DNA of 64,000 nucleotides, from positions 1,816 to 65,815 of IMG/VR virus record IMGVR_UViG_3300036845_000049; one strand, given 5' to 3'. Shown one piece after another: positions 1 to 63,900 of the stretch. A program made the position numbers and the translations under genes. The notes beneath the pieces are model-generated. The model had not been told where the DNA came from. It made no database searches and saw only the letters and a program-made list of their open reading frames with translations. The stretch is from a virus. Lineage: Duplodnaviria > Caudoviricetes. Within the stretch, counting starts at the first letter, position 1. Every line of letters begins with the position of its first letter.

Positions 1-2646
1 AGCCATGCGTTGGGCTTGTCGTTCTGCATCGGTTGGACCGGCAAGAGAAACGTGTTCTTCCTCTCCCCCTGCCGCTGCGTGTTCGGTCGGCGTTTCTTCG
101 TAGGCCGCCTCTGCGCGTGCTTCTTCTGGCGCTTCTTGCGGCTTGCCTTCTTCATCAACCGCTCCACCTTTAGCACGTACGCCCTCCGCGCCCCCCTCCA
201 ACCCAACCGATCCTGTGCCAAGCGCGCCCTCGTTACGGCGCACGGCGAACGCCTCTTGCCCACGGCCAGTATCGATCAGGTGTTCGCGATCTAGGAACCG
301 TGCGTAGGCTTCTGGCTTGGGGTACTTAGTTGCAGTCAGGTCCGCCGCTTCCCTGAGTTTTAGCATCGCGTCGTTATGAGGGTGCCCCTCGGGGAACGTA
401 TCGGGAATTTTAATGCCCGCCGCCTTCGCCTCGTTAACCATCGCCTTGGCGCGACTATATTCGTCATTGCGCCAATTGGGAGTAGGTTCTTGACGCGGAT
501 ACTTGTCTACAATCCGCTGCGCGCCTATGTTATCGTTGGCGACCTTCGCCTGATCGACTTTCGCTGTATGGACCCGGCCCTTAACGCCAGCCTCTTGCGC
601 TGCTGCGGCTTGTTTAGCAGCTTCCTTCGCCCTAAGCTGATCCTGCACGGAGCGCGCAGCCTGCGCCTCTTGGAATGCAGCCTCGTTTCGCGCACGAACG
701 CTCGCTTCATCCTGCGCCTCTAGGATACGCCCGGTTGGTGGGGCCGCCTTACCCAGTGGGTTAGCAACCTCCGGTTGTACAACCTGACGAGGTTGTGCAA
801 TCTCTGCTTGTCTAGCCGCTACAACGTCCTCCGGGCGCTCCACGCTGACCACGTTGCCGGGGGTCTTGCTAGCCTCTAGGTCCGCGACTTGGGCCGGGGC
901 AGTCGTCTCTGTGCCCGCCGCCGCCTTGGCTTCGGCCCCGGCTGGGGTGCGCTCGGTCACTGCTACAGGCGTCTCGCCCTCTGCAACCCTGGATAGCGCT
1001 TCATCCTTGGACACAGGGCCAAGTTGCAAGGCTTCGTTAAGCCGGTCGGTTTTGGCGTAATCCCGTATCTTGGCTACACTCAGACCGCTCGGCCCATTCT
1101 TGTCGAATTGAACGATGCGCCCATCAGGGAGCTTGACCTGCCCAAACGCCTTTTTATCAACAATATCAATAGGTTGCGACCCTTTCGGGTAGACCATCGC
1201 CTCCCGTGAGTTGCCCGGATCGAGCAGCGCGGCGTGCTGAGCGGCCAACGTCTCGGGAGTTTCCGGTACGACCGCCCCCACATCCTCGCGAGGCGGGGCA
1301 GGGACCGGGGTAGGACCGACTTCCGTGGGTGGCTGGGGGGGTGATGGCTCCCCGGTTGTATCGCCTGCTGGCGGTGCCTCCCTGCCCGTTTCTGAAGGGG
1401 GTGGGGTAGGTTGTACAACCGGAGGTTGTTCTACAGAGGGAGTTGGTGGTTCACTTACCCTCGGGGTAACTGGCTCGGGATTTAGAGCCGACGTTTCAGC
1501 AGGGCCAACCCCTTTATTCTCAGCCGTTGGGGGCGGTGGGCTAGTGTCAACCACTGGCGTTGCGGTAGCGGTCTTAGTTCCGGGCGCATCTGGGTCCAGT
1601 GAATATCCGCCAGTTGTGCTGCCCGACACACCCGACTTTTGCGTCATATCAACAGGCTTGCGGTAGTTCCGATCTGATCGTGTCGGCTCGGCGCTTACAC
1701 CGCCCTCAGGCAGGCGTGTCTTACCATGGAATGCACCACCTGCCAAGCCGACACCCGCGCCGAATAGCCCTTGCCCGACACCAGCGGTTAATAACTCATC
1801 GGGGGTTGCTTCCTCGCCTATCCCTTCTTTTGCCTGCTCATGGCCAGTGACGGCGGTTTGCACCGCCCCCAGCGGACCCATCTCTGCCGCGCCACGACCG
1901 GCACCAACAACGGCGTTCGCCCCCCTGCCAGTTACTCTACGGGTAAGGAAGTTGCTGCCGCCCAGCGCCGCATCTTCGGCGGGGCCAACACCCAACTTCG
2001 CGATACCGGTAAGCTCTACGCCGCCAGCCGCACCAAGCGCGCCGCCTATGAGCGCGGACGGGACGCCGACATTGAGCGCTGTGTCTTGCCCCAATTTAGT
2101 CTTAGCTTGTTCCTCAGTCATCCCCGACTGACGGTAATCCCGGTAGGTCGGGTTCTTATCCATCAGATCGATATCGTTGGTATTTTGGATCGCTTCCTTG
2201 TTCTCGCTAATGGCGCTGCCGCCACTGATCGCCGCGCCTGCGGCTGCGGACAGGGGTAGCCCAACTCCCGGTATGAGCGCGGGAGCAACCATTGCCGCCG
2301 TAGGGGCCGCTTGCTCTGCGATATAGACCGGCCAAGTCTGCTCGGCACCCGGCGTCATCGCCCCACGGCTCGCCGTCGCCGACTGCCGCTCGGCTTCTGC
2401 TTCCTCGGTCTGTCCAGTGACTTCGGCTAGGGGTGCGCCAACGCCGCCATGGAAACCCGCCGCCAGACCATGACCGATATCGGCTGCGTGCCAGTCTGGC
2501 GCATGGGTATATGGAGTATATCCACCACTCTCCCCCGTGCCGAAAGACCCAACCAACGGGTCATCGGTAGACGACGCGGCGACGCTCGTATCCGTGGCAC
2601 CGCCGAAGTGCCCAACTAGCGGATCATCTGTTTGCAGATCAGCCAT
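1..2646 (-). CDS. Giant virion/ejection-type protein, N-terminal part (runs off left end; absent from ORF track)
   Basis: ATG at 2646 overlaps the stop of the 2048-aa gene. The segments I translated (MADLQTDDPLVGHFGG... and ...ERQAQRMA at base 1) are in the same frame, and the ORF track shows no stop-terminated ORF in this frame. Confidence 0.8.
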   Translation of the reverse strand, partial: MADLQTDDPLVGHFGGATDTSVAASSTDDPLVGSFGTGESGGYTPYTHAPDWHAADIGHGLAAGFHGGVGAPLAEVTGQTEEAEAERQSATASRGAMTPGAEQTWPVYIAEQAAPTAAMVAPALIPGVGLPLSAAAGAAISGGSAISENKEAIQNTNDIDLMDKNPTYRDYRQSGMTEEQAKTKLGQDTALNVGVPSALIGGALGAAGGVELTGIAKLGVGPAEDAALGGSNFLTRRVTGRGANAVVGAGRGAAEMGPLGAVQTAVTGHEQAKEGIGEEATPDELLTAGVGQGLFGAGVGLAGGAFHGKTRLPEGGVSAEPTRSDRNYRKPVDMTQKSGVSGSTTGGYSLDPDAPGTKTATATPVVDTSPPPPTAENKGVGPAETSALNPEPVTPRVSEPPTPSVEQPPVVQPTPPPSETGREAPPAGDTTGEPSPPQPPTEVGPTPVPAPPREDVGAVVPETPETLAAQHAALLDPGNSREAMVYPKGSQPIDIVDKKAFGQVKLPDGRIVQFDKNGPSGLSVAKIRDYAKTDRLNEALQLGPVSKDEALSRVAEGETPVAVTERTPAGAEAKAAAGTETTAPAQVADLEASKTPGNVVSVERPEDVVAARQAEIAQPRQVVQPEVANPLGKAAPPTGRILEAQDEASVRARNEAAFQEAQAARSVQDQLRAKEAAKQAAAAQEAGVKGRVHTAKVDQAKVANDNIGAQRIVDKYPRQEPTPNWRNDEYSRAKAMVNEAKAAGIKIPDTFPEGHPHNDAMLKLREAADLTATKYPKPEAYARFLDREHLIDTGRGQEAFAVRRNEGALGTGSVGLEGGAEGVRAKGGAVDEEGKPQEAPEEARAEAAYEETPTEHAAAGGEEEHVSLAGPTDAERQAQRMA

Positions 2647-5600
2647 AACGTTGCATCGGACTTGATGGTATTGCCCCGCCCCGCTGCCAGCCTAAAGCTT
2701 TAGAGATGGGCGTTCCTGCGGACTGCCCAGCGTTATCTGGAATAGGGGGACGGTAAGGATTATTCGCCACAGCCGCCGTATCGGCTTGGTTGCGAGTTGC
2801 TAACGTAGCTTTCGCCCTTTGCATATTGAGAACATTAGCCCAGTCATTCCTTGGTAAGACAACCGTCTCGCGTGATCCATCGCTAGGACGAGTAATCGTC
2901 ACTGCATAGCGCGGACCATAGCCATCCTCTGGCACGGCGGCAGTTGTCGCCGTATAAGAGTTAAGCACGAAACCGCGCAACGCATCAGCAATAGCTGCTG
3001 GTTCCGCATCGTGAGTATAGCGATACCCATTAACCAACGCGTTGTCCATAACCATGCGTTGGTTCCGGTCGCCAAACTCACTGTTGTAATGGTCATCACG
3101 GAATTTCTGATCAGGGTTAACAGTCCCGTCAGGCATCGTTGAGGCTTGATCCTTATAAAAGTCTGCGGGTTGCTTACCCGTAATTTTACCATTCGCGTCA
3201 GTTTGCGTCGAGAACGTTCGTTGTACATCCGTATCAGGGCGCGGCGCACGCGCAGCGTGTTCTTCCGCCGTCTTGACAGCGAGCGCCTTGGCGTCGGTAT
3301 CATACTGCATACGTTTATCCGCTTCACCCTGCGTAAACGCCTCGCGTTTATTGGTTTGTTCTTGTGTAAACGTTTCGCGTTTGTTAGTCTGACCCTCAGT
3401 GAACTCCCTCCCCGCTTGGTCACGTAGGGTCTGGAACTGCTTGCTGCGAATGTCTCTGTTATCGGCTATATCCTTATTCATTGCGTCTTGGGCGCGTTTA
3501 GCCTTATCGTTGTACTGCGCCAGCGGACCCTTCTCGTAGGCTTGTATCGCTTGCGTTTGCTCCTGCCTACTCAGTCCTTGCAAATTCGGTGGGGCTGGGC
3601 GTGCCCAGTCCTGTCCATCAATATGAATGTAACCCTCCGGAGTCTGATACCGAGAGCGTATTGTCGCTGCATCGCTAGCGTTCGTTTGCTGTTCCTGATT
3701 GTTTATCCTCGCCGCAATGCTATCGAAGCTAACATCCTGCCCATCAGGGGTAGGGGCGGTGGGGTTGGGCCGGTCGGCGGGACTAGGTGGCGGCGGTAGC
3801 CCCCCACCATGTCCAGTCGGACCTTTACCCCCTGCCCCAGTAGGCGCAGTACCGTCGGCGGTTGGCGCAGCGCTAGCGCTATCTGGTGATGCTGACGCAG
3901 TTGCGGACGCAGTTGCGGACGCTGGTGTAGGTGTTGGCGCAGTTGCAGAACTAGCTGGGGTTTCTGTTGGTGATTGATCTGTTTTACCCACGCGGGTAAC
4001 TGGCTGCAACTCGTTACCGCCAACAGCATTTGCCACCCGCGTCTCACTAGCAGTCTGCGCGTCCTCTTTACCTTGAGCAATTACATTCTTCTGTCGGTTC
4101 GTCGCCATGTCCCTGAATGTTGGGTCGTATTTGCCCGCCTGTTCCTCCAACGCGTCCCACTGCATCTGCCCAGTGCGGCCACGGTTAGTCGCATATTGGA
4201 GTATCGCCGCTGCCGAACCTTTATGTTGCCATAGCACACGCCCATCCATGCCCTTGGCTTCCACTATCGCAGTGCCATCATCATTCAAGTGGACATGGGT
4301 CTGCCGCCCATCCGGCACTGCATCAGAGGCGTGGTTGATATTATCCACGGCCCCTTTCAAATTGCCATCATATAATTGTTTAGCAGCTTCTTCGGCAAAC
4401 TTCTGCGAGGTCTGCACCGAATATTGCAGAATACTAGCAGCCATTCGGCCTGCACCCTCACTGTTACCTTGGCTGAGCATATACCGATAAGTACCCTCCA
4501 TCACTGCAATCTGCCGCTCAGCATCATTAAGCGAGTGGTTAGGATCAATCGTATTGGCTATCTCGTTATGAATACTAGCGTCCATATCGCCAACATTTTT
4601 CCCCTGCACAAACCCCTGCCGGTTCCCCTGCGTCTGTGGATCACGAGCGATAGCCGGTGCGGCCTGCGCCCCACCAATACCAAGGTGATCCCCTAGCCAA
4701 TGAAGTCCATCACCAATCGCGCTAATCAAACCCTTCGATGGGTTGCCCTGCCCGTCACTAATCTCAGGCGTAATTGGCGAAACACTGGATGGACCGGCTT
4801 GACTGGGCGCAGGTGTTTGGTAGTCCGCCGGAGTGTAGTATCCATCTTGAGCCATTGATGGCGGTGCATTCGCCGCTGCGTCACGTTGATCTAGCAGCGC
4901 AGTCGTCATCTGGTCGTCGCCAGCCGTCTGCCTTTCCTCACTATAATCGGGAGCCGTATCACCAGCAGATACGTCACCGCCATCATCGAACGCAACCGAT
5001 CCGCCCCTAGCCATCGGCAGGGAGGGGATTGCCCCTGCGCCGAAAGTTGGCGCTGACGTTTGGCTGACGCCCTTGCCCACGGGTGCGCCTGCGGCTGCAT
5101 AGGTCGCCGGGTTGTAGTATATGGGAGGGATCGCGCCGCCGCCAGTTGCACCGGGGGGGGCGCCAGCCACGGAGGGGCTAACCCCGCCGCCATCGTCGTA
5201 TCGGTTTACCCTGCGGGTAATTGGGCCGCCCTTGCGAGACAGGATTTGGGTGGTTTGATCTTTTGGGTCAGTGCTATAGTTCGTACTGCCGGAACTATCG
5301 GTGGCAGACCCAGTGCCAGTCGTGGCGATATTATTGGGGTCATAGGTCTTAGCCAGTGTGCCGGTTGTCGGCACGCCGGGAATGCCAGTCGTCGTAGTGC
5401 TGGTCGGGTCAATACCAGTTATATCCACCTGAGGGGTGGTGATAGTCTGCGCCGAGGCACCGGGTTCGTTAAGAGGCGTAGGCGCGGCAGGCGTGGTAGT
5501 AGGCCAAACGGCATTGGGCATCAGCGAAAGCTGGCTAGCCGGATAAGTTGGATTAATCCCTTGAGCGTTTAGCGCAGCCGTTCCTTGGTTCGTTCCAGCC

Positions 5601-8600
5601 CAAGCTTTACTTTGTTGGTCAGCCCATGCTTGCTGATTGGGCGCAAGTTGGGCGTAGGGCGTACCCATCCACCCGCCGGTCGCCGTAGGCCCGTTGTAGG
5701 TGCCCCCCCAAATCGCGTTCATTACCGCTGTAGCGCCAGCGGGGTTAGTCGTCAATCCACCACCGGTGGCAAACGCAGTCGCAGGAATAGCCCCACCAGC
5801 GGCGAACCGCTTGATCGGCCCACCCTTGCGGGACAGGATTTGCTTCGTGGTGTCCTTATCGTCAACACTATAATTCGTACTACCTGAACTATCGGTGGCG
5901 GACCCACTGCCGGTCGTGCCGATCACGTTGGGGTCGTACGAGTTCGCCGTAATGACGTTCGATACACCGGGGGTGCCGGTCGTCGTAGTCGAAGTCGGGT
6001 CCGTCACCGTCGTACTAGTGGGATAATTCGTGATGTTCTGCACCGATGGCGGGTTGACGATTGTCGGCGAAGGCGTAGCCGCCGCAGGCGCAGCCGCCGC
6101 CGCAGCCGCTGGCGTAGTGGGGTAAGAAGCTGGGTTGTAGTACCAACTCGCCCTCCCCCCTCCCGCTATCTCGTTAGCGTTTTGTTCGTTATACCATTGT
6201 TGCTGGGCTGGCGTGAGCGCGTTGATATCAGCGGTTGTTCCCGGCCCACTCATAGTGGCAGCAAGCCCACCAGTGGACGTTGGCTGGGCCGCAAGCCATT
6301 GCGCCGAGTTCCAAGGCTGATACCCTAGTTGCGAGTTCGCATATGCGCCTACACTAGATAACCCACCCATCGACGGCTGTACCGTCGTAGGCGCAGGACT
6401 TCCCACCGGCCCTTGGTATGTCGTATAGGGGGTAGGCGAAGTGGTCGGTTGCCAACTGGTAAGCTGCACGCCGCCAGCGCCAGCATAAGCCATTGTCGGG
6501 CGAGAAGGGAGCGCCCCACCCTTGGCAAGACTTACCCGCTGGGTAATTGGGCCACCCTTCGCCGCGCCAAGCTGCATACCCAGCGTCATATCGTCCATAT
6601 TGGGCGCACCCACCGCGAAGTCTTGGTCATCCGGTCGGCGCATAGCCACCGGAGGAGGCGGGGGTGCTGGCGTTGGCGCAGCTTGCGACACTGGTGGGTT
6701 CGGCCCCCACAAGTGAGAAAGATCAATCGCCGTCATCTGCCTAGGCTGACCGCGAACATTTGGACCTTGGTTAGGCGCATCGATCTGAACAAAACGCGGG
6801 TCTTGTGCTGGCGTGGCGGGGATTGCACGCGTTGCGCTTACCGGCGTTGCATCGGGTGATGGTTTATTGGCTTCCACTGAAGGAGAACGTGCGGTCAGAT
6901 CGGGCCGCGCGCCATCGTCCGCTCGTGTTGCCGGACCCATTGGCAACGTCGTACGCCCACCACCTTCCGGCCCCATCTGTGGGGTTGGAGGCTCAGGCAC
7001 CGACGATGGTGTTGGGCCAACGTTAGGCGGTGCGCCCGTGCGTTGTGGCGGCCCCATTACTGGCCGGTCAGGCACGGACGAGGGCGTCATGCCGACGTTG
7101 GGCGGCGCGCCCGTACGTTGCGGCGGCCCTAAATCAGGCCGCTCCGGTATCCCTAGCTGACGACCGCGTGCAGCAATCGATGGCTCATTGCCCAACGTAC
7201 TGTCGTCAATCGGTGCAGCTTCGACCGGAACGCGGGTGTCACTTTGATCGCTAGTGTTCCGCTGCATGTCGCGAGCGCGCGCCGCTATCGATGTTTCATT
7301 GAACGGCGTATCGTCAGTATCGGAAGGCTTAGCGTCGGGTGCTGCACGATGCTCCGCTAATGTTCTTGCCGCCTTCTCTGCGCCTGCCTCAGTAACACCA
7401 TCCGCAGGTCCCGCCACTTGATAGGGGGTATGCAAAACTGGTGGCCCTTCGGGAGCCGCTTGAGCAACTTTATCCTTATTCGGTCCTTTCGTTGGTGTCT
7501 TAGCCGTCGTCGTGGGGGAGGCCAATTCAAAGTGCGGCTTATCCGGGTGCCGCCAGTCATCACCCGCGTTAAGTTTGACGCCTTCTTCCTTGGCGGCGGT
7601 TTTAATCGCGGCGGTGACCTTCGACTGCGCGGCGGGATCGAATGTAACCCGGTTATTACCATCAAGCGCCCATAAGTCGGCAGCGTTGCCCTTCATATGA
7701 ACAGACGCGTCCCCGCCATCCTTAGAGCCGACTTGTGACCACCCTACGCTCTTAGCCCAGTCCTGATCGACAGCGGAGCGCTTGCCATTACCCAGCACGA
7801 ACTTCAAGTCTGGGTTATCAGCGCGAGCGCGGGCGATAACCTTCTGCATATCGGGATTGATCTGCTTGAGGTTCGCCGCCTCATTGCCGACTGGATCGGG
7901 GTTCCAGCGGGTAAACATTGGTAGTTGATCACGGCCCTTGTCATCCTTGACAGGGATGTTGGCGTAGACGCCATTCGGGCCAGTGTTTGCGCCACCGCCC
8001 TTATCAACTGTTTGTTGGTAACCATCAGTGTTCATCGTAGCAGATTTCACTGATGGCGAAGCGGCGGCGGTGCGCGTAGCTGTGTCGCCGCCATGCACCG
8101 TCGCATACACGCTAGACGTGGGTGTACTGTTCAGTAATACGTCACTGCGCCCACCGCTCTCCTTATAGCCCCCGGCGCGCTCGAAATGCATCGCCGCGTA
8201 AGAGCCTTCCTCTGGTGACGCGGCGTTCTTAAATTGCTCCTTCGCCCGCGCCTGTTCAGGCGCATCCAAATCTGCGCCAGCGTAATATTTCAATTGATCG
8301 TCAAAGTTGGTATTGCCCGCAATCGGCGTCTTTCGGTCCCCCAACCATTGGGCGATGCCGAATGCTTTTGAGCTTGGGTTGACCGAAGTCGGCCCATCCG
8401 GTGCTTCCCGCGTCATACGCGCAACCGCACCCGCCGCGCCATACTCGGAAAACTTGCCGCTGTCCATTAAAACATTATAGGCATGCTGTTGGTTTTCCGG
8501 CGTCCAGAATTTACCCGATACTCCACCGCCATAACCGCCACCACCACCACCACCACCACTGCCGCCCTTATCCCAATCCCTCCCTGCTGCCTGCCCAGCA

Positions 8601-8785: not shown

Positions 8786-8802
8786 CTAACTTACTCTAAG
8801 GG

Positions 8803-10113
8803 TTAACCGGGGTATGCAGGGATAGCGCCGCCCATTGCGTGCGCTGGACGGGATACAAATGATGGATGCTGCGGGATCGCCGCCGTAGGCTCCCCGCCTA
8901 TGTCATTACGCCCTGCAAATTTCTGTTGCTCTTGCCGCGCCTTATCGATCTGCCCTGCAAAATATTGATGACCCTTCCACACCGCTACGTCTTTTGGGAT
9001 CACGAACTCGTGAGCGGTCAGCATCGCAGGCACGTCGTCGGTCGCCACGCCCATGCTTGGTGATGCGTGAATAGGCACGGTGCCCCCCGGTGTCGCCCCT
9101 GCGTCGCCACCACGATTGTATACCTGACGCGGCATCATCGGCGCGGAAGGAATGCCTGTCGCACCGCCGCCCTGATCCGGGGTTTGTTGATACGAAGCCA
9201 TACCCGGCACAGGAGGAAGCGCTGGCCCGCCGTCAGCATACCCAACCGCACCACCCTTAGCGATCCTCATAATCCCCGCGCCAAGCACACTACCCAACGC
9301 TGAGCCTAACCCGCCCATCTCGCCTGCGCCAGCTTCATTGAATGCAGCCTGCGATTGGTTGTACCCATTGACAGCGCCAACATAGCTGTTCATGGCGTTG
9401 GTGCCAGCGTTGAACCACTGGCTAGGGGCCGTCATCGCTTGCGAACCTGTCGATAAATTCCCCTGCGCCGTACTACCCGCACCCGACGCTGCGTTTGCCC
9501 CCGCCGATCCTGCTTGCGTACCAGCGCCAGTCAATGTGCCAACAGAATTGACCAGCCCCCGCCCAGTATTAATCGCGCCGCTCTCCAACTCCATCTGTTG
9601 GGCGCGTAAATTTTGCGCCGCCGTCGTTCCAGCGGCGGCTTCCGCCGCGCCAATCATCGGCTGTGCACCTGTGAACAATGACGCGTAACGCGCAGACCCC
9701 GGATTGATACCATAACCTCTAAGCGTCTCGGCAGCGGTATTAACGCCCTGCATCCCTTGCTCACCAACACTTGCCATGGCTTGCGCACGCGCGGTCGCCA
9801 TCGCCTGCGGCGACGCCCAATTTTGCGCTTGCTCAACGTAATTCGCTTCAAGCGGAGCGTAATATTGCTGATATTCCTGCCACTGTGCTTGGCTCTCAGC
9901 CTGCGATTGCGCCATGCTCGCTTCTTGCTGCTGAGCTAACGCAATCTGTTGCTGCTCGGATTGGTCCATGAGCGGTTGCTCTTGGTTCCAAACCTGCTGG
10001 GTCCACTGCAATTGCTGCTCACCAAGCGCGTACGCCTGATTGGCGGCCTGCGCAGACGCCATTGCCTGCATCATTCCAGACTGGTCGGCGCTACCGCCCT
10101 TATCGCTACCCAT
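8803..10113 (-). CDS. Internal virion/DNA transfer (pilot-like) protein
   Basis: 436 aa, Ala/Gln/Gly-rich helical; YADGG...DDVPAMLTAHEFVIP motif typical of ejection/tape-measure proteins. Confidence 0.65.
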   Translation of the reverse strand: MGSDKGGSADQSGMMQAMASAQAANQAYALGEQQLQWTQQVWNQEQPLMDQSEQQQIALAQQQEASMAQSQAESQAQWQEYQQYYAPLEANYVEQAQNWASPQAMATARAQAMASVGEQGMQGVNTAAETLRGYGINPGSARYASLFTGAQPMIGAAEAAAGTTAAQNLRAQQMELESGAINTGRGLVNSVGTLTGAGTQAGSAGANAASGAGSTAQGNLSTGSQAMTAPSQWFNAGTNAMNSYVGAVNGYNQSQAAFNEAGAGEMGGLGSALGSVLGAGIMRIAKGGAVGYADGGPALPPVPGMASYQQTPDQGGGATGIPSAPMMPRQVYNRGGDAGATPGGTVPIHASPSMGVATDDVPAMLTAHEFVIPKDVAVWKGHQYFAGQIDKARQEQQKFAGRNDIGGEPTAAIPQHPSFVSRPAHAMGGAIPAYPG

Positions 10114-10140
10114 CCAAGTTACTCCGTGGGTAAGTTCCCA

Positions 10141-15672: not shown

Positions 15673-15690
15673 ATATTTTTACTCTCAGGG

Positions 15691-45754: not shown

Positions 45755-46075
45755 GTGAGTAAAATGGTAAACTTTGTGACCGTGGAACCGGATGTTGACG
45801 TTCCCGCCGACGAGAAGACGCTTATCCTTGCGTTCGGGGTAACTCCCATGGAAGCTAGGTTTATGCAGGCGATGCTTAACACCACCGATTGGATCGGCAA
45901 GGATGAACTACCAGAGATTAAATACAGCATTCGCCAAGTCATCTACACGCTACGCACGAAGCTAGAGAAGCGCAAGATTTGGGTGATTAACGATGGCAAT
46001 GGACGATATTCTATCCCGCCTGCGTGCAAAGAAATTATTAGACAAACAATCGAAACCATCTTACCCACAGAGTAA
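45755..46075 (+). CDS. Winged-helix (OmpR C-terminal-like) DNA-binding protein
   Basis: TPMEARF..., SIRQVIYTLRTKLE....IN...GRY. Confidence 0.7.
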   Translation: MSKMVNFVTVEPDVDVPADEKTLILAFGVTPMEARFMQAMLNTTDWIGKDELPEIKYSIRQVIYTLRTKLEKRKIWVINDGNGRYSIPPACKEIIRQTIETILPTE

Positions 46076-49875: not shown

Positions 49876-50069
49876 GTAACGATGCATTAGGTGAACGGTT
49901 CGCTGACGCCATTACGAGGGTATTAGAGATATTACCGAAGGATGGAACGGAAGGACATTTCCCCTGCCCCGCCTGCGGCATAGGCGAAGTGCACTGGCTG
50001 CGTGTCGGCAGGAAGAAGCATTTGCGGATCGGATGCACTACACCAGAATGCGTAATGTTGATCCAATAA
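49872..50069 (+). CDS. Zn-ribbon small protein
   Basis: CPAC...C...C; GTGA coupling inside palindrome. Confidence 0.65.
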   Translation: MSNDALGERFADAITRVLEILPKDGTEGHFPCPACGIGEVHWLRVGRKKHLRIGCTTPECVMLIQ

Positions 50070-50888: not shown

Positions 50889-50922
50889 CTTACCCGCAGG
50901 GTAAACAAGAAAGGACAATAAC

Positions 50923-52131: not shown

Positions 52132-52194
52132 CCTTACCCATAGAGTAAAAGGGCGGGGCGAACCCGCCCATCTCTGCTTACTGGGGAGGTAAGT

Positions 52195-55149
52195 ATGAGC
52201 GACATGTTGCGGTTCATGAATATGGTTGCGCCTGTGAGCCAAGAAACATGGTTCACAATACATCACCGTACCTTCGTGCCGGGTAGGGTAGACCCTATCT
52301 TCCCCGGCAATGCCCACAAGACGATCAAGACAGCGATGAATGACGCCCAGTATTGGGCGCAGAGAGGCCACTGCGTTTACATATCGCAGGGCATATACCG
52401 CAGCGCAGGGCCGGTAACCGGGATTTACCCGAAGGCTGATCGGACGTACCCTAATCTCGTTGCCTGCAAGAACCTCTACATGGACGTAGACGTTAAGCCA
52501 GACGGTTATCCAACTCACGACGCAATGAAGGCCGCAGTTTTTGGCTTCCTTAAATGGTTCGGCTTATGGCCGACCGTCATCGTCGGCAGTGGATCGGGCG
52601 GGTGGCATTTATACTGGACCCTACACACTGCGATTGACGAGCGCGAATTTAAGAACCTTGCAGGGCGATTGATCAATGCCGGTACAGAGTACGGCCTGCT
52701 ATTCGATAAGCAATGTACACGTGATGCGACGCGGCTTCTCCGGGTAGCTGGGACGTGGAACTTCAAGCATGCCACTGATGACGTGCCAGCTTCGTCCGTG
52801 ACGTTGGAGCATAGCAGCGACGGGGTTCATATCGATGTTGATACAGGGCGCAAGCATTTGGAGCGCTGGCCTACCGCAGTTACCCAAGAGAGTAAGCCGC
52901 ATGTAGGGAGCGTAGACGCACACGGATTACCACTAGACGAGAACGCCGACCTGACTGGGGGTATGAAGAAAGAATATGCGCCCGTATCTATTGATGAAGT
53001 CGCCGTTCACTGTCCTTTTGTTAGAAACACTCTGGATGCTGGGGGAGCTAATCTGGTGGGCGACCCGCAGTGGCATACGGTCGTGGCGCTCGCGTGCCAT
53101 ACCACGGACCCACGGGGAACGGCTCACCGACTGTGCAACAAGTCGCCTCACTACACCGAGGAAGGAACTGACGACAAACTTACCACCGCGCAGTTGGCGA
53201 GGGAGCAGCGCTCGACTATTGGACCGCCGAAGTGCGCCACCATCGCCATCGAGCGAGAAGAATGCAAGACTTGTCCACATTTGGCTCTTGCTACCACTCC
53301 ATTGGCGGTTGGTTTTAAGCGGACCAACGGTCACGCTTATCAACCCTTCACCGCCGCCCCCGGTGCACAACCCATAGAACTGCCTTGGCCTTACTACCAA
53401 GACGCCACCAGTTTACAAATATTCAAGCCACCAGTAGATAATGGTAAGGCTAACGAGGTTGGTGGGCTGGTGTTTGAATACCCTATCCTGCCGGGTGCCA
53501 TGCTTGAGGTAGGGCATCCATCGTACCAATTCATCCTGAACACTATGCAGGGAGGTAAGGAAGTGACCAAGCAGTTCGATAGTTCCATCGTTGCTGACAA
53601 TATAACTTTTGCCAGAGCGTTCTCCGCTGCGGGGTTGCCGCTCACAGTAAGGCCAATCGACATGCCTAGGCAATTCATGACTAGCTACATCAAGCAGCTA
53701 CAGCATAAGCCCGAAACCCTTATCACTGTGCCCGCCTTCGGTTGGTCGCCGGATGCGAACGGAGACATTGGGTTCGCCTTCGCTGGCGAGTATGTCTCCC
53801 CTGCCGGTACGTCTAGATGCGCTCACCCGTCGGGTGGTACGGCGAACTACAGGGTAATGGGCGACGAGCAAGTATGGAGGGATTTAGTAAAGCTTATCGT
53901 CACCCCTGACAGACCTGACTTATCGTGCATGATCGCGTCAAGTTTTGCTGCGCCGCTGGTGGGTATGACCGGCGAGAATGGGTTACTCATGGGGGTAACT
54001 TCGCCTGCATCCGGCATAGGGAAATCCACGGCGCTGACGACAGGGCAGGCGGTATGGTCAAATCCGGGTGGCGTCGGTGGGCTAAGCGACACCGTGAACT
54101 TCACGTTCGCTAAATGTGCCGAGCTTAGACACCTGCCAGTATTCTATGACGAAATTAAGGGTGACCAACAACTAAAGGATATGACGAAAATTGCTTTTCA
54201 GTTAACAAGAGGACAGGAGAAGGGACGCTCAGATCGTTCTGGTAAAATGCGCAAGGTCAATGAGTTCAAGACGCTGTGCGGGTATGCCGCCAACGGCTCC
54301 ATTGTTGATGGCGTACGCGAGGAAGATAAGGGTACTGACGCATCGTGGCTGCGTATCTTCGAGATGCGGGGTATCAAAATACCAGAAACATCTCCCAACT
54401 TCGCGACGAGTGTTCAAGACTTACTCAATGGGTTAGAATTGAACCACGGTGGGATCGGCAGGAGATACGCAACGTACTTGGGTCAGAACCATGCCAAAAC
54501 TTACAAGATGTTGGCTGCGTTCAAGATGGATATTGCACAGGAGCTTCGTGCAAGCCCAAAGGTCGAACGGTTTTGGGTAGCAGCCATTGCGACGACGATG
54601 CTGGGCGCTTATCTTGCCAATGCATTGGGTGTCGTAACGTTCCCAGTGGATGACATGAAGAAATTTATGTTCTCTGAGTTCCATCGCATGAAAGATGCGA
54701 TGGCTGAGGACCCAAGCGACCTGACTAAAGAACGGGCGTTAATGAATACGATTGGCGCGTTCCTTAACGAGAAGCAACCCCGTAACATGGTGATCCTCGA
54801 CAAGACGTGGAGTCAACCGCTGCGCCCACCTAAGGGATACGCTAATATCCTCAATGAGAAGCCTGATCAGAACTGGGGCAAGCTAGAAGCACAAGTATCA
54901 GGTGACCCGCTCACTCTACGTATAGCTGACATCGCCCTAACCGAATGGTGCGCCAAAGGTAAACGCCCGAAGAACGTTCTTGTCGATCAGATGCGGAGCG
55001 TGATGGGGGCTAAGATGACAAGCGGCATCATCGGGTCTGGCTCACGCAAGGGTGGAGCTAAAGAGAATATATGGCTTATCAACGCCAAGCCGGGTACAGA
55101 AATAGCAAGTTACCTCGAATACACGATCAACTATAAATTCCTGCCATAG
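52195..55149 (+). CDS. Primase-helicase (AEP-like primase plus DUF927/P-loop)
   Basis: YMDVD, SGSGGWHLYW, R.LRVAGT.N; C..CPH; Walker A SGIGKST, FYDE; GGAGG RBS. Confidence 0.85.
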   Translation: MSDMLRFMNMVAPVSQETWFTIHHRTFVPGRVDPIFPGNAHKTIKTAMNDAQYWAQRGHCVYISQGIYRSAGPVTGIYPKADRTYPNLVACKNLYMDVDVKPDGYPTHDAMKAAVFGFLKWFGLWPTVIVGSGSGGWHLYWTLHTAIDEREFKNLAGRLINAGTEYGLLFDKQCTRDATRLLRVAGTWNFKHATDDVPASSVTLEHSSDGVHIDVDTGRKHLERWPTAVTQESKPHVGSVDAHGLPLDENADLTGGMKKEYAPVSIDEVAVHCPFVRNTLDAGGANLVGDPQWHTVVALACHTTDPRGTAHRLCNKSPHYTEEGTDDKLTTAQLAREQRSTIGPPKCATIAIEREECKTCPHLALATTPLAVGFKRTNGHAYQPFTAAPGAQPIELPWPYYQDATSLQIFKPPVDNGKANEVGGLVFEYPILPGAMLEVGHPSYQFILNTMQGGKEVTKQFDSSIVADNITFARAFSAAGLPLTVRPIDMPRQFMTSYIKQLQHKPETLITVPAFGWSPDANGDIGFAFAGEYVSPAGTSRCAHPSGGTANYRVMGDEQVWRDLVKLIVTPDRPDLSCMIASSFAAPLVGMTGENGLLMGVTSPASGIGKSTALTTGQAVWSNPGGVGGLSDTVNFTFAKCAELRHLPVFYDEIKGDQQLKDMTKIAFQLTRGQEKGRSDRSGKMRKVNEFKTLCGYAANGSIVDGVREEDKGTDASWLRIFEMRGIKIPETSPNFATSVQDLLNGLELNHGGIGRRYATYLGQNHAKTYKMLAAFKMDIAQELRASPKVERFWVAAIATTMLGAYLANALGVVTFPVDDMKKFMFSEFHRMKDAMAEDPSDLTKERALMNTIGAFLNEKQPRNMVILDKTWSQPLRPPKGYANILNEKPDQNWGKLEAQVSGDPLTLRIADIALTEWCAKGKRPKNVLVDQMRSVMGAKMTSGIIGSGSRKGGAKENIWLINAKPGTEIASYLEYTINYKFLP

Positions 55150-55213
55150 AAGTTACTCTATGGGTAATATGGAAAATCAGAAACACTTGTAGAAACTTTC
55201 TAATTTACCCTTC

Positions 55214-55472: not shown

Positions 55473-55771
55473 AACGAGCTATCATGGTTTTATTACTCTG
55501 TGGGGTAAGTAATGCCAGCGCTGACGCTCGCTGCTTTAAGCTTTGGCATTACCCATGGCCTCAGAATTGTAATGCGCATGGGGTCTATCTACGCACGTCG
55601 AAACCCAGTCGGGCTATTCTACCTGCTGTATTTCACCCTCCTGTTAGCGTTCCTGATCCTGTTCCTGATATTCTTCTGCCGGACATGAGCGCAACATGGG
55701 GCGGGGCGATGGATAGCGAGCTTGAATTGCAAATGCAACGACAAAGAGCGATTAGATCACTCGAAAAATAA
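55469..55771 (+). CDS. Putative secreted protein
   Basis: Signal-peptide-like N-terminus; C....W.YPWPQ.C. Confidence 0.6.
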   Translation: MKRAIMVLLLCGVSNASADARCFKLWHYPWPQNCNAHGVYLRTSKPSRAILPAVFHPPVSVPDPVPDILLPDMSATWGGAMDSELELQMQRQRAIRSLEK

Positions 55772-55864: not shown

Positions 55865-56002
55865 AATATTGTGGCTTATACGGGCTGGGGTTCGTGGCCT
55901 ATTTTCCCTTTCAGAGTTACCCAGCGGGTAAGCCTATTCCCGTCGCATGTGCGACTGGGGTCCGGGGCGGCGGGGTCCGCTCACTTCACATGGGGTAATA
56001 GT

Positions 56003-56786: not shown

Positions 56787-56930
56787 ATGTTTACTCGGGT
56801 GCTGGAAGCCATAGGCGCTTTCCTAATAGTGTGCGCGGGTATGTTCGCCATCTTGGCGTGGCGCGCACCGTATATACCCGATGAAGATGACCTTGAACAC
56901 GAAGATCAAAACGATTTACCCGATGGGTAA
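56787..56930 (+). CDS. Small single-pass membrane protein (47 aa)
   Basis: MFTRVLEAIGAFLIVCAGMFAILAW plus acidic tail; stop lies within palindrome. Confidence 0.5.
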   Translation: MFTRVLEAIGAFLIVCAGMFAILAWRAPYIPDEDDLEHEDQNDLPDG

Positions 56931-57703: not shown

Positions 57704-57723
57704 GCAACTTACTCTATGGGTAA

Positions 57724-58882: not shown

Positions 58883-59602
58883 TCATTCCGTCCCGTCGTA
58901 GACCACTATTCCATTAACTGAGACAACAACTGTCCCCGTTGCTGTAATATCTACTCGTCCCGACATTTCTGGTAGCGGGTCGGGCGGTGGCGGCGCAGGC
59001 TCTGACGTTTTGACCAGCGCAGGCTTAAACTTGTTATAGTACCCAGCGATGGTGCTTGCCTGATCAGTGCCGTTGACGGTGCGCCGTGCGTTAACTGCGT
59101 CCTCGGTGGTAGAATTGAAGTATTTGGGCAGGCCCACCCCGGTGAACCACCCCACCGTCATGCCGTCATACATCACCAGCGCCGATGGCTCGTTCTCTAG
59201 CATCTTGTCTGGATACTGATACAGCGGGACATCGAGGCCATAATCTTTCTTAAGTTGATCTTGGCCCATCTGGTAGTTGGTGTCCCACGTCAGTTGAACG
59301 TGGCCGCGCCCATAATACACGTTATTATAGGGGCCGGTAGCCGTCCAATACTTACCCGGTGGGTTACCATACGGCTTGCCGCCGTTCTCTTTTACCGGAA
59401 CCATCTTCTGGCCGGTTTCATGGTACGCAGTGGCGAAGCAATAGGCAAGCCAATTCGTGCCGTCGCGCGGGTTAGGCTGCTCGAAATATTTCTCCCAAAC
59501 GTCAAGCATATAGTTCATGCCATCCACTTGGGACTGACTAAGCGTACCGCCGAACAGGGATGACCGGACGGCAGGGAAGAATTTGTCGCGATCATATGGC
59601 AT
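58883..59602 (-). CDS. Endolysin, glycoside hydrolase family 19-like
   Basis: LAY..AT.YHET, YYGRG.VQLT...NY, ARR.VNG. Confidence 0.85.
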   Translation of the reverse strand: MPYDRDKFFPAVRSSLFGGTLSQSQVDGMNYMLDVWEKYFEQPNPRDGTNWLAYCFATAYHETGQKMVPVKENGGKPYGNPPGKYWTATGPYNNVYYGRGHVQLTWDTNYQMGQDQLKKDYGLDVPLYQYPDKMLENEPSALVMYDGMTVGWFTGVGLPKYFNSTTEDAVNARRTVNGTDQASTIAGYYNKFKPALVKTSEPAPPPPDPLPEMSGRVDITATGTVVVSVNGIVVYDGTE

Positions 59603-59672
59603 GACTTACAACCTTACAGTTACCCTTAGAGTAAACGGCGGGAGTCGCCCCCCGCCGCGTGTCACTTACTTA

Positions 59673-60655: not shown

Positions 60656-60676
60656 TGTACCTTACTCCATGGGTAA

Positions 60677-60955
60677 CTATTTATCAATAGGCACTGAGTA
60701 GCCTTTTTGCCCTTTTCTCCATGAGCGGTTTTTATGCACGCTCTCCACACGAGAGTTACCCATAGAGTTACCCCCGCCCCCAGCCAATGGGTTGATATGC
60801 GCCACGTCGCCCGTTGGGGAGTGGCCTAACCGCTTAGTTGTCTGCGCACGCAATTGATTGCGTTCCTCACGGTGCTTGATCTGCTCGGGCGTGTCTTCGT
60901 AGCGTTCCTCTTTCTTGTAGTCGCGACGTTGAGGGGGGTTGCTACTGGTAGACAT
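60677..60955 (-). CDS. Small HNH-like protein
   Basis: RDYKKE...RN..R...DVAHINPL..GG.N...N.R......NRS. Confidence 0.65.
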   Translation of the reverse strand: MSTSSNPPQRRDYKKEERYEDTPEQIKHREERNQLRAQTTKRLGHSPTGDVAHINPLAGGGGNSMGNSRVESVHKNRSWRKGQKGYSVPIDK

Positions 60956-63900
60956 TGTATTCCTCCGCGTTGGCGCGCTGCCGTGGCGTCATTGGCTTAC
61001 TAGCCCTACCAGCCTGCCTAGCTTTGAGGATATGCCCTGCCGTGATACGGTTCTGTGGGTGGGCGAGGTTCCATCTATTCGCCGCCGCCCGGTCCCCCTG
61101 CCCCGCCGCCGCGATGGCTTGCTTACGTTCGGCGCTATCCTCCTTGATCAGCCCAGTCTCTTTGTTGTACAGCGCCTCGCGCGTCGGCGTGCCGCCCGCC
61201 GCCTTAATGAACGTCTCATAGGGATCAAGTGGCGTCATGTCGGGTTGCCCGTGCTGACCCGGCTTGCCACTCTCATTTTCTGCATACGCCTTGGCTATAT
61301 CGGAGAACAACCTGATCGGGATAACACTGGGTATGCCATGCTTGTAATCACCCTTGAGTATGCTGTTGACGCCATCCCATTCGTCCTTGACGTAGCCCGT
61401 CCCAGAACCAACCATATCAAACAGGAAGTCTTTTGGCGACTGCAACGCTTGGTTCTTAACCATCAAGTCGTTCAACCCAATGCGCGAACTGGCGCTCAGC
61501 CCTGCCGCGCCAAGAATGCCATCCATAACCAAATGACCACCGAACTTACCCATAGAGTTAGTCGTCGCCCTGCGCGCCGCATCCTCATATTCATCCCAGC
61601 TACGGGTCAACCCAAGAGCATGGGACATCTCAACTGCCAGCCGTATAGGCTCTGGCACGCCAGACGCCACCCCTGCTAGCGCCGCCGTGGTGCCCATGGT
61701 GGACACGAGCGATATGATGGCAGCGCGCTGAATTTCCGGTGTCTCCCCCCTGATCGCGTTGTATACATTCTTCGCCAGCAACCGGTATATCATCATGGGC
61801 ACCGCACGGAACTGCATCGCTGCCCGTACAACAGGGTTCTTTAAGAACGATGCACGGTTACTCGCAGAGTAAATGCCCAATGTCGGGCTAACTGTATCCT
61901 TCGCATAACGCACCGCTTGCGCATGATGTGCGACACTCTGCGCAAGCGTTTGAGGCTTGCCCATCTTCGCGCGCTCTAAATCGTACGCCGACATATAGGT
62001 GGCCACACGATTGGTACTGTCGACCGCGTGGCTCATCTCATTGCCGATGTTCTGTAGATACTGAGTGGCGCGATCCACCATGCCAGTGCGGTCGAAGCTC
62101 TTCCGGTAGTCCGTGATAATCGAACCTAGATGAGGAGTTTCCCTGCCACTATCGAAAGCTTTAAGCTGGTCAGTCGTAGCTCCGTTTTTAACCAAGCTGT
62201 CCCGTATACTCGACAAGAGATCGGTTGGCACATGAGCGTCGCTCTTGAGCGCACCTAACATTCCCTTAACGCCTCTACCCAACGTCTTGCCAGCGCCCAT
62301 ATTACTTAGCGTCTTGAGATAGGCAGCATGTGATTGAGCGAACCCATGTCGCCCTGCAAGCTGTGGGATCGAATACAGATATGGATGCGTCAAATCCAGC
62401 GCATAATGAATAGGTGCCATCATATCCTTCACGTATGCGAGCGCTGTAATTCGCTGCAAGAATGGCGACATCTGCCCGGTGAACCCCTCCTTGCCGAAAT
62501 GCAGCGCTCTATCCTCCATCTCACGCACCAGCACGCCACGCTTGGGTGTGTTCGCGTCCTGTACCTTGCGCGTTATATCGCGCATCTCGCCAAACGCCTT
62601 GTCGATATCCGGCATAGTCTTAGACCGCGCCTGACTTCTGGCGCTGTTGGCGAGGTAGTCATGCACAGCCAACACCGGGTCAGCGTTAGCCCCACCCACC
62701 CGATTGCTCTTAAGTAAGCCGCTGTTTATGCGATTACCCTTCATCAACCCCAGCGAAGCTTGCTCGTTGGCTTCCTTAAGCGCAGCCTTCTGATCGTTAC
62801 TCAGATGGGTAAGTGCATCTATAGCGTGTTCCTGCGCCCGCAGCGTGCCAGAGTGCAGGCCATAGTCGAGACTAGCATTCTTCTCTCGTAACATAGGCTC
62901 AGTTGGATCAAGTCCCATCTGCCTAAGCGCATCGCCCAACTTCCTGCCTTCGTAAACATCATTAACCCCATAGGAAGCCTTAGTCTGCACCGTCACCTTG
63001 TACTGTTCACCCTGCCCCGGCTTCTGCTCGGTGCTGGTCGGCTCAGTGACTTTCTCCATGCGAGACGGCAGGGATTTATCTACCAACTCCTGCCGATAGT
63101 CGTAGGCGTCCTGCTTGTTGGCGAACGTAACCTCCTTGTCCTTCACAGACACAGCCTTGGGGGCCTTAGGTAGCTCATGCTCTGCGTTCACCACGTAGTC
63201 GCCTTTGCGCGAGCCGGGGAAGTAGGGGCCTTCTTGTTTCAGCATTCCACGCAGGTCCCGAAGCATCTTAATGTGCGGGTCTTCGTTGAACTTGTCGGCC
63301 TCGTCGCCCTCTAGCTTGTCGCCGTCCAATACCTTAGTCACTGCGTTGTAACGCTCAACCTGCTTAATCTCGGACGGCGTGCGGTTCGCTTCTGTCGTCC
63401 TAAGCGCTTCCTGTAGACTTTCGTTATTGTCGAAATTCTCACGCAGCCCGTTGGAGAATGTTTCAATGCCAGCCTTAACGCTCTTGTGTCCTTCCTCCAT
63501 CAGCGCGTCACGCAGGTCACTGAACAACGAGCGTTCTTCCTCGGTCGATCTATTAAAGTCATCAGACAGACGCGGGTGCGCTAGAATGCCCTCATGGTTC
63601 TCAGCGTTGGCGTTCACACCAAACTTGCCTTTACGGTCTGGCTTGATATGATCATTGCGTCCAGCCCCTAACGCTTCGTCAGGATGCACATTGAAGTTGG
63701 CGCTCTCACTCAACAGAGTGACCAATCTATCTAACCCGTCAGGGTTAGTGCGCTTCATGTTCATCATGCGTTGCATCAAGGGATCGTGCGCTTGGAGTGC
63801 ATTCTGGATCATCTTCTCTTGCTTAAGCAACCCCTCCTGCGCACGGCGCATAGGGTTTGCCTCGGTCTTGTCACCAAACATATGCTCGTTGTCTATGCGT

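Follow-up and report, generated by a model that had tools for sequence, protein, structure and literature searches.

What could keep one short palindrome written some 80 times along a phage chromosome, between genes and inside them, and what would read it? The question arises from the genome of a tailed soil phage (Duplodnaviria; Caudoviricetes; IMG/VR record IMGVR_UViG_3300036845_000049, labelled G000 here), of which bases 1816-65815 of one 65,815-bp contig were analysed. This stretch of 64,000 nucleotides (nt) is called the window, and positions below are those of the window. The palindrome reads TTACYC-N{3,4}-GRGTAA, where Y is C or T and R is G or A, so that two 6-nt arms flank a free spacer. 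Its copies are a real, strongly selected array of palindromes that is private to the phage. On balance, we lean towards reading them as duplex DNA sites that a phage-encoded protein with two-fold symmetry recognises by sequence; protein binding, a dimeric state, phage encoding and an effect of binding are what we infer from the pattern of the sites.

Number, spacing and anatomy of the palindrome

The window holds 55 strict matches to the consensus, against a mean of 0.01 in 100 dinucleotide-preserving shuffles (maximum 1; none of the 100 reached 55), which agrees with an estimate, in a preliminary description of this DNA, that chance would give far fewer than one copy. Allowing one mismatch, with Y and R permitted, gives 80 copies in the whole contig, 78 of them in the window. 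That description listed about 75 copies, and a by-eye comparison found all 75 starts among the copies with at most two mismatches; each is a genuine copy or a variant with one or two mismatches, and two strict copies (25976 and 61858) had been overlooked. Of the 80 copies, 27 are intergenic or span a gene end, and up to 53 fall within called genes. The latter number is an upper bound because genes were called as the longest open reading frames (ORFs); for example, the copies at 28618 and 31792 sit in unconserved 5′ extensions.

The copies are spread more evenly than chance would place them. The plus-strand replication arm carries 45 copies in 25.6 kb (1.76 per kb) and the remainder of the genome 35 in 40.2 kb (0.87 per kb), matching the densities first proposed, about one per 0.6 kb in the early arm and one per 1.2 kb in the late arm. 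The coefficient of variation of the gaps is 0.63, compared with 0.985 for random placement, and none of 2000 simulations was equally even; the claim that copies are dispersed rather than clustered therefore holds. For the replication arm alone, the coefficient is 0.445 with a mean gap of 576 bp, and long genes such as those for the polymerase and primase are dotted with copies at about that interval. Evenness extends to relatives, with coefficients of 0.50-0.77 (P ≤0.031) in 10 of 13 motif-rich genomes. A second background preserved the encoded proteins: 100 shuffles of synonymous codons reduced the strict copies from 55 to a mean of 17 (maximum 21). The 21 strict copies that are not wholly within a called gene are untouched by this shuffle, and since the post-shuffle mean is about equal to their number, the intragenic copies are abolished by synonymous shuffling. 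Both checks, of codon-preserving background and of spacing regularity, had been proposed in the preliminary description, and both bear it out. Lone TTACCC half-sites outside the copies are not clearly enriched (39, with about 29 expected overall), which suggests that the functional unit is the pair of half-sites.

Read on the coding strand, the 3′ arm is nearly invariant (G-R-G-T-A-A) and the 5′ arm is T-T/A/G-A-C-Y-C; 55 of the 80 copies are symmetric at all 12 specified positions. In the asymmetric copies (TAACCC and TGACCC variants), the deviant arm is the coding-strand 5′ arm in 22 of 25 cases, and in at least six of those 22 the first three bases of the motif are the stop codon of the upstream gene, TAA or TGA. 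Use as a stop codon accounts, at least partly, for the orientation of the asymmetric copies: for much of it, though not all. In junction copies, the 5′ arm provides a stop codon and the 3′ arm or the spacer provides the purines of a ribosome-binding site, with a start codon 0-9 nt beyond the 3′ arm in 18 of 27. Intragenic copies use frame 2 (Tyr/Asn/Asp-Pro-x-Gly-Lys/Asn) or frame 1 and are often located in poorly conserved protein linkers. The flanks in G000 have a weak A-S...S-T symmetry, and the spacer follows W-N-W.

Some spacers recur. The copies at 46599, 55153 and 57709 are letter-identical 15-mers with the spacer TAT, from which those at 60756 and 61546 (TAACTC) differ at arm position 2 only. 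On the coding strand, TAT occurs seven times and ACA five times, and their reverse complements, ATA and TGT, are absent from the 30 commonest spacers listed.

Spellings in related phages and occurrence in host DNA

Relatives were collected by a capsid-protein scan of IMG/VR, which returned 142 and from which 80 loci were retained; scans with the DNA polymerase and the ATPase gave only nine and four close loci, respectively, and a polymerase alignment scan gave distant relatives only. The closest relatives, L227 and L081, are two overlapping loci of one contig, with 82-85% nucleotide identity to G000 in the aligned parts. Identity in the arms is 96% (L227) and 95% (L081), compared with 80% in the loops and 79-82% in the 15-nt flanks, and 22 of 24 and 23 of 26 covered sites, respectively, are retained. 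This pattern shows purifying selection that acts on the arms only. In relatives at 74-78% identity, about half of the covered copies are retained (e.g., 10 of 16 in L229), indicating that copies turn over.

Among the 80 loci, the spelling found in G000 is confined to the closest relatives. A common design, T-N-A-C-Y-N / 2-5 nt / N-R-G-T-N-A, is shared across lineages, each with a spelling of its own, and this includes the cultured phage RHph_TM27A. A search for over-represented gapped palindromes gave TTACTC..GAGTAA, TTAACTG-N4-CAGTTAA, TCACTA-N4-TAGTGA, AACTAT-NN-ATAGTT, TTACCT-N4-AGGTAA and TCACTC-NN-GAGTGA; asymmetric spellings were TAACTC-N3-GAGTGA and TTACCA-N4-AGGTAA, and contigs binned with bacterial genomes gave TTGCTC-N4-GAGCAA and CACTAC-N-GTAGTG. 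The clade thus contains at least eight half-site spellings on one design (TTACCC, TTACTC, TAACTG, TCACTA, CAACTAT, TTACCT, TCACTC and TTGCTC). Whole related genomes carry 39-76 copies each with at most one mismatch, a 31-kb partial genome carries 22, and RHph_TM27A carries 52. In G011, 20 of 21 copies are TAACTGC-NN-GCAGTTA, nine of them unbroken 16-bp palindromes, and in G013 all 22 exact copies are AACTAT-NN-ATAGTT. Relatives with 85-90% capsid identity already carry differing motifs. In the linker of a 400-amino-acid (aa) protein encoded upstream of the capsid gene, G000, L009, L019 and L023 each have their own motif at one alignment position, in differing reading frames, and copies arise in place through point change.

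Relatives with 64-72% capsid identity were found in bacterial assemblies, integrated in a Pseudolabrys bin and a Xanthobacteraceae bin and present as whole 60-61-kb contigs in two Bradyrhizobium isolates. In four such assemblies, TTACC-N5/6-GGTAA was counted over the whole assembly, with the reversed pattern as a control. Nine of 12 sites in G001 fall in the 60.5-kb phage contig, all 10 in G004 in the prophage region, and all 10 in G005 in two prophage copies; in G002, three are in the phage contig, eight in one other contig and two elsewhere. The reversed pattern occurred 9, 11, 8 and 2 times in the four assemblies. Host DNA outside the phages thus holds 0-3 copies per 3.3-8.7 Mb, not above the control, with the one extra G002 contig as the exception. 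These data, which answer the suggestion that candidate hosts be scanned for the word, show that in the hosts of relatives it is not over-represented outside phage DNA. The motif is therefore private to the phage, which speaks against host words of the Chi, uptake or HIP type, as well as against a regulator of the host that has targets there. The preliminary description had left open a phage- or host-encoded dimer, and a host-encoded reader now appears unlikely.

Two contigs stand apart. The eight copies of the exceptional contig (G002:C166, 713-23946, from a Bradyrhizobium sp. assembly) lie within 24 kb that may be a second phage of the clade. The two prophage copies of the Pseudolabrys bin (G005:C4, 32238-33224 and 94131-95117) are seemingly identical and 61.9 kb apart on one 465-kb contig, and represent either a tandem prophage or an assembly duplication.

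Duplex site, hairpin and other readings

An inverted repeat can act as a duplex or as a folded single strand, and we consider the latter unlikely here. The copies would then be hairpins with a 6-bp stem and a 3-4-nt loop, in messenger RNA (mRNA) or in single-stranded DNA. In mRNA, the stem could hide the ribosome-binding site of the next gene until the upstream ribosome opens it, or be the target of a phage RNA-binding protein or RNase; in DNA, the hairpins could be priming or loading signals for the phage primase-helicase at the spacing of Okazaki fragments, whose length is of the order of the 0.6-1.2 kb seen here. The free loop sequence, the varying loop length in several genomes, the start codons close behind the 3′ arm (18 of 27), the stop codons in the first three bases of six copies, the alignment of the deviant arm with transcription and the joint change of both arms between lineages are all consistent with this model. 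Selection for pairing within a genome is not seen. The Y/R combinations on the coding strand of the 80 copies are C-G 36, C-A 23, T-G 17 and T-A 4; the non-pairing C·A is at least as frequent as the wobble U·G, and the double change that would preserve pairing, T-A, is rarer than independence predicts (4 observed, about 7 expected). Over the 13 motif-rich genomes, only 105 of 428 single-mismatch copies produce G·U, and transitions at position 5 are even between the arms (13 vs 17 in G000, 9 vs 10 in G006, 10 vs 8 in G019). Neither compensatory nor G·U changes preserve the base pairs among the copies. The symmetry conserved in G011 and G013 reaches within two bases of the centre, which are too few for a loop, and the weakly symmetric flanks and W-N-W spacer of G000 likewise add symmetry that a hairpin could not exploit. 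A switch at ribosome-binding sites would have no role in the intragenic copies, up to 53 of 80 by the crude gene calls, and a scan for intrinsic terminators (stem plus U-run) flagged, among the copies in 31500-51499, only the one at 36096, on the non-coding strand. Each arm drifts to the consensus and not to its partner arm, which is the behaviour of half-sites and not of paired strands.

Because the mismatches are uncompensated and show no G·U bias, a duplex site read by a symmetric protein of the phage is favoured over a hairpin in RNA or in DNA. The dimeric protein on double-stranded DNA put forward in the preliminary description is thereby supported, indirectly, by the mismatches and by a spacer that is near-fixed in seven of the 13 genomes (G006 48/53, G007 45/48, G010 37/40, G011 37/39, G012 38/41, G013 22/22 and G019 61/61). 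Part of the original argument was that sequence variants have no bias to the transcribed strand. This is true of the C/T and G/A variants (17 vs 23) and fails for the TAACCC and TGACCC variants, which are biased to the 5′ arm.

Several observations weigh against the duplex reading. The alignment of asymmetric copies with transcription (22 of 25) is covered by stop codons in at least six of 22 cases; the same orientation is found in relatives, where exact copies lie on the plus and minus strands in ratios of 9/2 (L010) and 9/0 (L054), and the intragenic copies deviate in the 5′ arm 11 times and in the 3′ arm three times, a weak residual bias without explanation. The spacer in G000 is of mixed length, with 3 nt in 50 copies and 4 nt in 16, and it also varies within G008 (24/11/9), G009 (36/9/4), RHph (36/16) and G014; such variation would be natural in hairpin loops, and classical helix-turn-helix dimers do not usually show it. 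Copies do not match sigma-70-like promoters, of which 15 were found in 20 kb, compared with 16.2 in shuffles, few of them adjoining copies, and a classical operator role is therefore not indicated. Relatives integrated or carried in bacteria hold far fewer copies, 6-16, which is a poor fit to a simple role in silencing during lysogeny. The host test covers only the hosts of relatives, and scans of 58 of about 90 called proteins against Pfam and PHROGs named one DNA binder, an XRE-type protein, and did not find the reader.

The remaining explanations also fit parts of the pattern. We give little credence to the copies being targets of a phage enzyme that marks or cuts DNA, such as a methyltransferase, another base modifier or a site-specific nicking enzyme of the kind that leaves localized nicks in some phage DNAs. 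A short palindrome with an unspecified centre is typical of such recognition sites, specificity has switched rapidly from one lineage to another, the motif is specific to phage DNA and a putative methyltransferase is annotated in RHph_TM27A; against this, the scanned G000 proteins have no methyltransferase or site-specific nuclease domain, the only nucleases recognised being endonuclease VII and PD-(D/E)XK, which are usual recombination enzymes. Nor would such sites need enrichment and even spacing, and a spacer varying within one genome is not usual for such enzymes. That the phage copies a host word, as the site of a nucleoid protein, a Chi-like recombination signal or an uptake-type signal, is very improbable: lineage-specific spelling could track different hosts, and the even spacing is reminiscent of Chi and uptake sequences, but host DNA has 0-3 copies per 3.3-8.7 Mb, at or below the reversed control except in one G002 contig, and motifs already differ between close relatives. 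We find it equally hard to credit that the copies are recombination linkers or selfish micro-repeats, spread by or serving the exchange of gene cassettes between phages. One third of copies are at gene junctions, and copy-copy recombination is reported for a mycobacteriophage repeat (PMC4351075). Nucleotide homology to 11 relatives has 269 ends, of which 37 lie no more than 25 bp from a copy (13.8%, compared with 6.4% at random); homology ends are also enriched at gene boundaries (31% vs 9.7%), 28% of which have a copy, so that about 12% would be expected and no breakpoint excess is specific to the copies. Moreover, intragenic copies with a 4-nt spacer cannot be in-frame insertions, and copies arise in place by point change.

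If the copies are duplex sites, the protein would recognise the half-site T-T-A-C-Y-C in two halves 3 bp or, less often, 4 bp apart, and selection would maintain one site per about 0.6 kb in the replication arm and per about 1.2 kb in the virion arm. Because a compact genome has scant free space, the sites would be written at gene junctions, where the 5′ arm holds a stop codon and the ribosome-binding purines lie within the 3′ arm or directly past it, or in tolerant protein loops and linkers. From lineage to lineage, the specificity of the protein would shift in step with all of its sites. Even spacing suggests an action of the bound protein over the entire chromosome and not at a few promoters; the protein might block or tune transcription, as at stoperators, or spread along the DNA after loading at the sites. 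A possible though doubtful extension is that the palindromes are a private, fast-evolving address code, in which a phage protein loads at even sites and covers or marks phage DNA as self. A 393-aa protein family, the universal first early product, is a candidate for the reader of such a code by position and ubiquity alone. Were this correct, the phage would treat its own DNA differently from that of the host and of kin phages, and so might shield it from nucleases, exclude kin or be immune to them, or replicate or package it selectively; specificity would be reset jointly in each lineage.

The array had been presented as a candidate undescribed system. That does not stand, since a dispersed dyad repeat with more than 30 copies was already published for Cluster O mycobacteriophages: according to Cresawn et al. 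2015 (PMC4351075), a 17-bp repeat, TGTTCGG-N3-CCGAACA, is present in 34 copies in Corndog, both intergenic and intragenic, most of them away from promoters, and the host genome lacks it. The same paper proposes binding sites for a dimeric protein with function unexplained, and reports recombination between copies. Both repeats have inverted 6-7-bp arms around a free centre (3 bp in Cluster O), more than 30 copies genome-wide, intergenic and intragenic, mostly away from promoters and absent from host DNA (here that of relatives' hosts, with 3/12, 0/10 and 0/10 sites outside phage). As far as that source describes Cluster O, the two differ in sequence and in phage group (podovirus-like, of soil Proteobacteria, here; siphoviruses of Mycobacterium there), in density, which is about twofold higher here (80 copies in 66 kb vs 34 in Corndog), and in constraint, with degenerate arms and a spacer of 3 or 4 here and invariant arms there. 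Many sister lineages here differ in spelling at matching positions; in Cluster O, all five genomes have a single spelling.

New here are the lineage-specific spellings of one design, the test in host DNA and the uncompensated mismatches without G·U bias. Literature searches, which did not cover supplementary files, found no published report of the TTACYC-N3/4-GRGTAA consensus or of the feature in this clade. Stoperators of Cluster A mycobacteriophages, bound by the L5 gp71-type repressor, number in the dozens and are oriented with transcription. Like the palindromes, they are dispersed over both arms, with some squeezed into junctions, differ in consensus by sub-lineage and co-evolve with a protein that acts genome-wide; unlike them, stoperators are asymmetric. 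This comparison rests on the abstracts of PMC9283540 and PMC6550527, the former describing asymmetric 13-14-bp sites read by a monomer. No repressor of the L5 gp71 family and no integrase were recognised in the scanned G000 proteins; relatives of G000 occur as prophages.

A second parallel is with proteins of the KorB/ParB family, which have dispersed palindromic sites (RK2 KorB and its OB operators, parS, Noc sites). These, too, are 13-16-bp palindromes at many places of one replicon, and loading followed by sliding would explain why even spacing matters. The number of sites here is several times higher, no ParB-type domain was found in the scanned G000 proteins, and we know of no variable spacers in parS-type sites. 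The G000 array stands out by its density, its spelling switches at conserved positions, the host test and the existence of cultured members. Dispersed phage dyad repeats have been noted for a decade without explanation (PMC4351075). The present clade is a good handle on them, with 40-80 evenly spaced sites per 55-66 kb, none to few in host DNA, and cultured Rhizobium phages (the RHph_TM27A group, 52 sites) that grow on a harmless laboratory species, Rhizobium phaseoli in the case of RHph_TM27A; because one design comes in at least eight spellings, at matching positions, co-variation between protein and DNA can be mined. Identification of the reader would explain a recurrent feature of phage genomes and might reveal a new sequence-specific DNA-binding fold that is easily re-targeted.

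Candidate readers, positions and genome layout

Four conserved early proteins without an assigned function, of 393, 112, 250 and 402 aa, are the only ones present in nearly all genomes. The first is encoded by the first gene of the early arm (33836-35017, plus strand) and was found by profile search in 14 of 15 related genomes, which is the sole reason for keeping it as a candidate reader. Its homologue in RHph_TM27A is EVB29_028. The N-terminus of the protein is acidic and disordered and its tail is rich in Lys and Ala; the AlphaFold model, with a mean predicted local distance difference test score (pLDDT) of 73.7, is all-helical and confident in the core. Searches gave no Pfam or PHROGs family, no sequence match in the PDB, weak leads only from Atlas, 62 homologues of which none is informatively named, and no match by fold (the best Foldseek E was 0.43, and the best VIA-align Z, 7.4, lay within helical noise). 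Profile searches of the 112-, 402- and 250-aa proteins against the PDB gave nothing useful, and the model of the 112-aa protein (pLDDT 73.6) had no Foldseek match. The 402-aa protein (50923-52131, plus strand), with an invariant Cys cluster, a long Pro/Ala linker and a conserved acidic C-terminal stretch, had no database match and looks like a zinc-containing single-strand DNA-binding protein. A contrast of gene content between motif-rich and motif-poor genomes found no gene private to the former.

The XRE helix-turn-helix protein (41740-42111) was also considered as the reader. A profile search found it in only four of 15 other genomes (G006, G007, G011 and G012), although 13 are motif-rich. 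Its recognition-helix stretch is almost unchanged across G011 (TAACTG), G012 (TCACTA) and L082 (TTACCC), and it is the best conserved protein between G011 and G012 (75.5%) despite their differing motifs. The patchy distribution and the constant recognition helix exclude it as the determinant of specificity. The scanned G000 proteins showed no domain of the ParB, methyltransferase, integrase or RNA polymerase type; for ParB, the Pfam scan covered 40 proteins and left out about half of the approximately 90 ORFs, mostly short ones. Among the scanned proteins, no integrase and no repressor family beyond XRE was found, with some ORFs unscanned and no gp71 query used.

Joining the contig ends gives a single uninterrupted frame of 1537 codons (1-2646 plus 63896-64000, minus strand), which indicates that the contig is a complete, circularly permuted genome. 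The virion arm runs on the minus strand from 57777 via the contig ends to 32134, and the replication arm on the plus strand from 32088 to 57703; arms in relatives were assigned by homology. A PHROGs scan of 20 large proteins identified a major head protein, portal/adaptor, large terminase, internal virion proteins, tail fibres, a family-A DNA polymerase, helicase, primase-helicase and MoxR-like ATPase. Further Pfam matches were a DUF2201 metallopeptidase/VWA protein, the XRE-type protein, a PD-(D/E)XK nuclease and an endonuclease VII domain. Megablast of G000 against the phage collection gave no nucleotide match. The nearest cultured relatives are the four Rhizobium phages of the RHph_TM27A group (69.4% identity in the capsid protein, 32.5% in the primase), and remoter kin are HMO-2011-type podoviruses of marine bacteria, at about 30% identity.

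Table 1. Copies of the palindrome in the window with at most one mismatch (strand given as '.').
Position	Strand	Context
749..763	.	Intragenic; TAACCC variant on coding strand
1455..1469	.	Intragenic
1932..1946	.	Intragenic
3984..3999	.	Within 2048-aa virion gene; 4-nt spacer
5206..5220	.	Within 2048-aa gene
6532..6546	.	Within 2048-aa gene
8791..8805	.	Junction; stop TAA in 5′ arm, ATG 5 nt past 3′ arm
10119..10133	.	Junction; ATG 5 nt downstream
11306..11320	.	Within 780-aa gene; retained in L003
13858..13872	.	Junction; stop TAA in 5′ arm, ATG 5 nt downstream
15679..15693	.	Junction; stop TGA in 5′ arm, ATG 6 nt downstream
17319..17334	.	Within tail-fibre-like gene; 4-nt spacer
17571..17585	.	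Intragenic
18498..18512	.	Intragenic
19876..19890	.	Intragenic
21243..21257	.	Junction directly downstream of major capsid gene; copy there in other lineages as well
22704..22718	.	Variable linker of 400-aa protein; own motif of each lineage at same alignment position
23919..23933	.	Junction; stop TAA in 5′ arm, ATG 2 nt downstream
24698..24712	.	Junction; ATG 5 nt downstream
25976..25990	.	Strict copy absent from earlier list
27569..27583	.	Within portal-like gene, low-complexity part
28618..28632	.	Unconserved 5′ extension of portal ORF, probably leader
29528..29542	.	Junction
30012..30026	.	Junction; stop in 3′ arm, ATG 3 nt downstream
31792..31806	.	Closely downstream of promoter-like late-arm site (31846-31818, minus strand)
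31968..31982	.	Divergent control region
32376..32391	.	Divergent control region; spacer GCAA
32871..32885	.	Junction; GGAG within site, ATG 7 nt downstream
33346..33361	.	TAACCC variant
34054..34068	.	Within 393-aa early gene
35064..35078	.	Intergenic; adjoins terminator-like hairpin 35080-35103
35612..35627	.	Junction; GTG 6 nt downstream
35889..35904	.	4-nt spacer
36096..36111	.	4-nt spacer GCAA
36716..36730	.	Upstream of ATPase gene
36898..36912	.	Within ATPase gene; TGACCC variant
37611..37626	.	Within ATPase gene
37859..37873	.	Junction; ATPase stop TAA in 5′ arm
38190..38204	.	TAA of 3′ arm terminates 112-aa gene
38656..38670	.	Within DUF2201 gene
38947..38961	.	Within DUF2201 gene
39693..39707	.	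Junction; stop TGA in spacer
40043..40057	.	Gene end; ATG 1 nt downstream
40480..40494	.	Junction; GGAGG within site, ATG immediately downstream
40892..40906	.	
41234..41248	.	Within 291-aa gene
41756..41770	.	Upstream of XRE gene
42109..42123	.	Junction; XRE stop TAA in 5′ arm, ATG 1 nt downstream
42516..42531	.	4-nt spacer
43223..43237	.	Junction; DNA polymerase ATG 3 nt downstream
43874..43889	.	Within DNA polymerase gene
44454..44469	.	Within DNA polymerase gene
44802..44817	.	Within DNA polymerase gene
45522..45537	.	Weak copy, 3′ arm deviant; may be chance
46061..46075	.	
46599..46613	.	Junction
47638..47652	.	3′ arm deviant
47927..47941	.	Within nuclease gene
48439..48454	.	At helicase gene start
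49177..49192	.	Within helicase gene
49865..49879	.	Junction; helicase stop TGA in spacer
50890..50904	.	Junction
52134..52148	.	Junction preceding primase gene
52880..52895	.	Within primase gene
53983..53998	.	Within primase gene
54421..54435	.	Within primase gene; 3′ arm deviant
55153..55167	.	Junction following primase gene
55493..55508	.	
55917..55931	.	
56916..56930	.	
57709..57723	.	Intergenic; convergent boundary of arms
59352..59366	.	Intragenic
59620..59634	.	Intergenic
60662..60676	.	Junction; ATG 6 nt downstream
60756..60770	.	Intragenic
61546..61560	.	Within 979-aa gene
61858..61872	.	Strict copy absent from earlier list
62797..62812	.	Within 979-aa gene

Other features of the genome lie outside the palindrome family. 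The early control region has two strong terminator-like hairpins with T-runs, at 32427-32452 (11 pairs) and 35080-35103 (10 pairs), which bear no relation to the palindromes. The protein of the 1537-codon frame and the next one, of 979 aa, match PHROGs named DarB-like antirestriction and have no Pfam domain. The recombination endonuclease VII domain (Pfam E 5e-22) is on a 155-aa protein of the virion arm (13385-13852, minus strand), and the MoxR-like ATPase and DUF2201 metallopeptidase/VWA protein form a gene pair (36752-39703, plus strand) kept in nearly all relatives. Among remoter HMO-2011-like contigs, whose polymerases are 36-41% identical, some have other palindromes in the early region that may or may not be of the G000 kind, such as TAACAWTGTTA, with 18 copies in 9 kb. 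One distant contig of this kind (L192:294-8763) contains eight copies of GTACGTCA-N-TGACGTAC, each followed by 10-12 near-identical bases (ATAACATAGA), and this palindrome, which overlaps TTGACG, looks like an early promoter-operator cassette.

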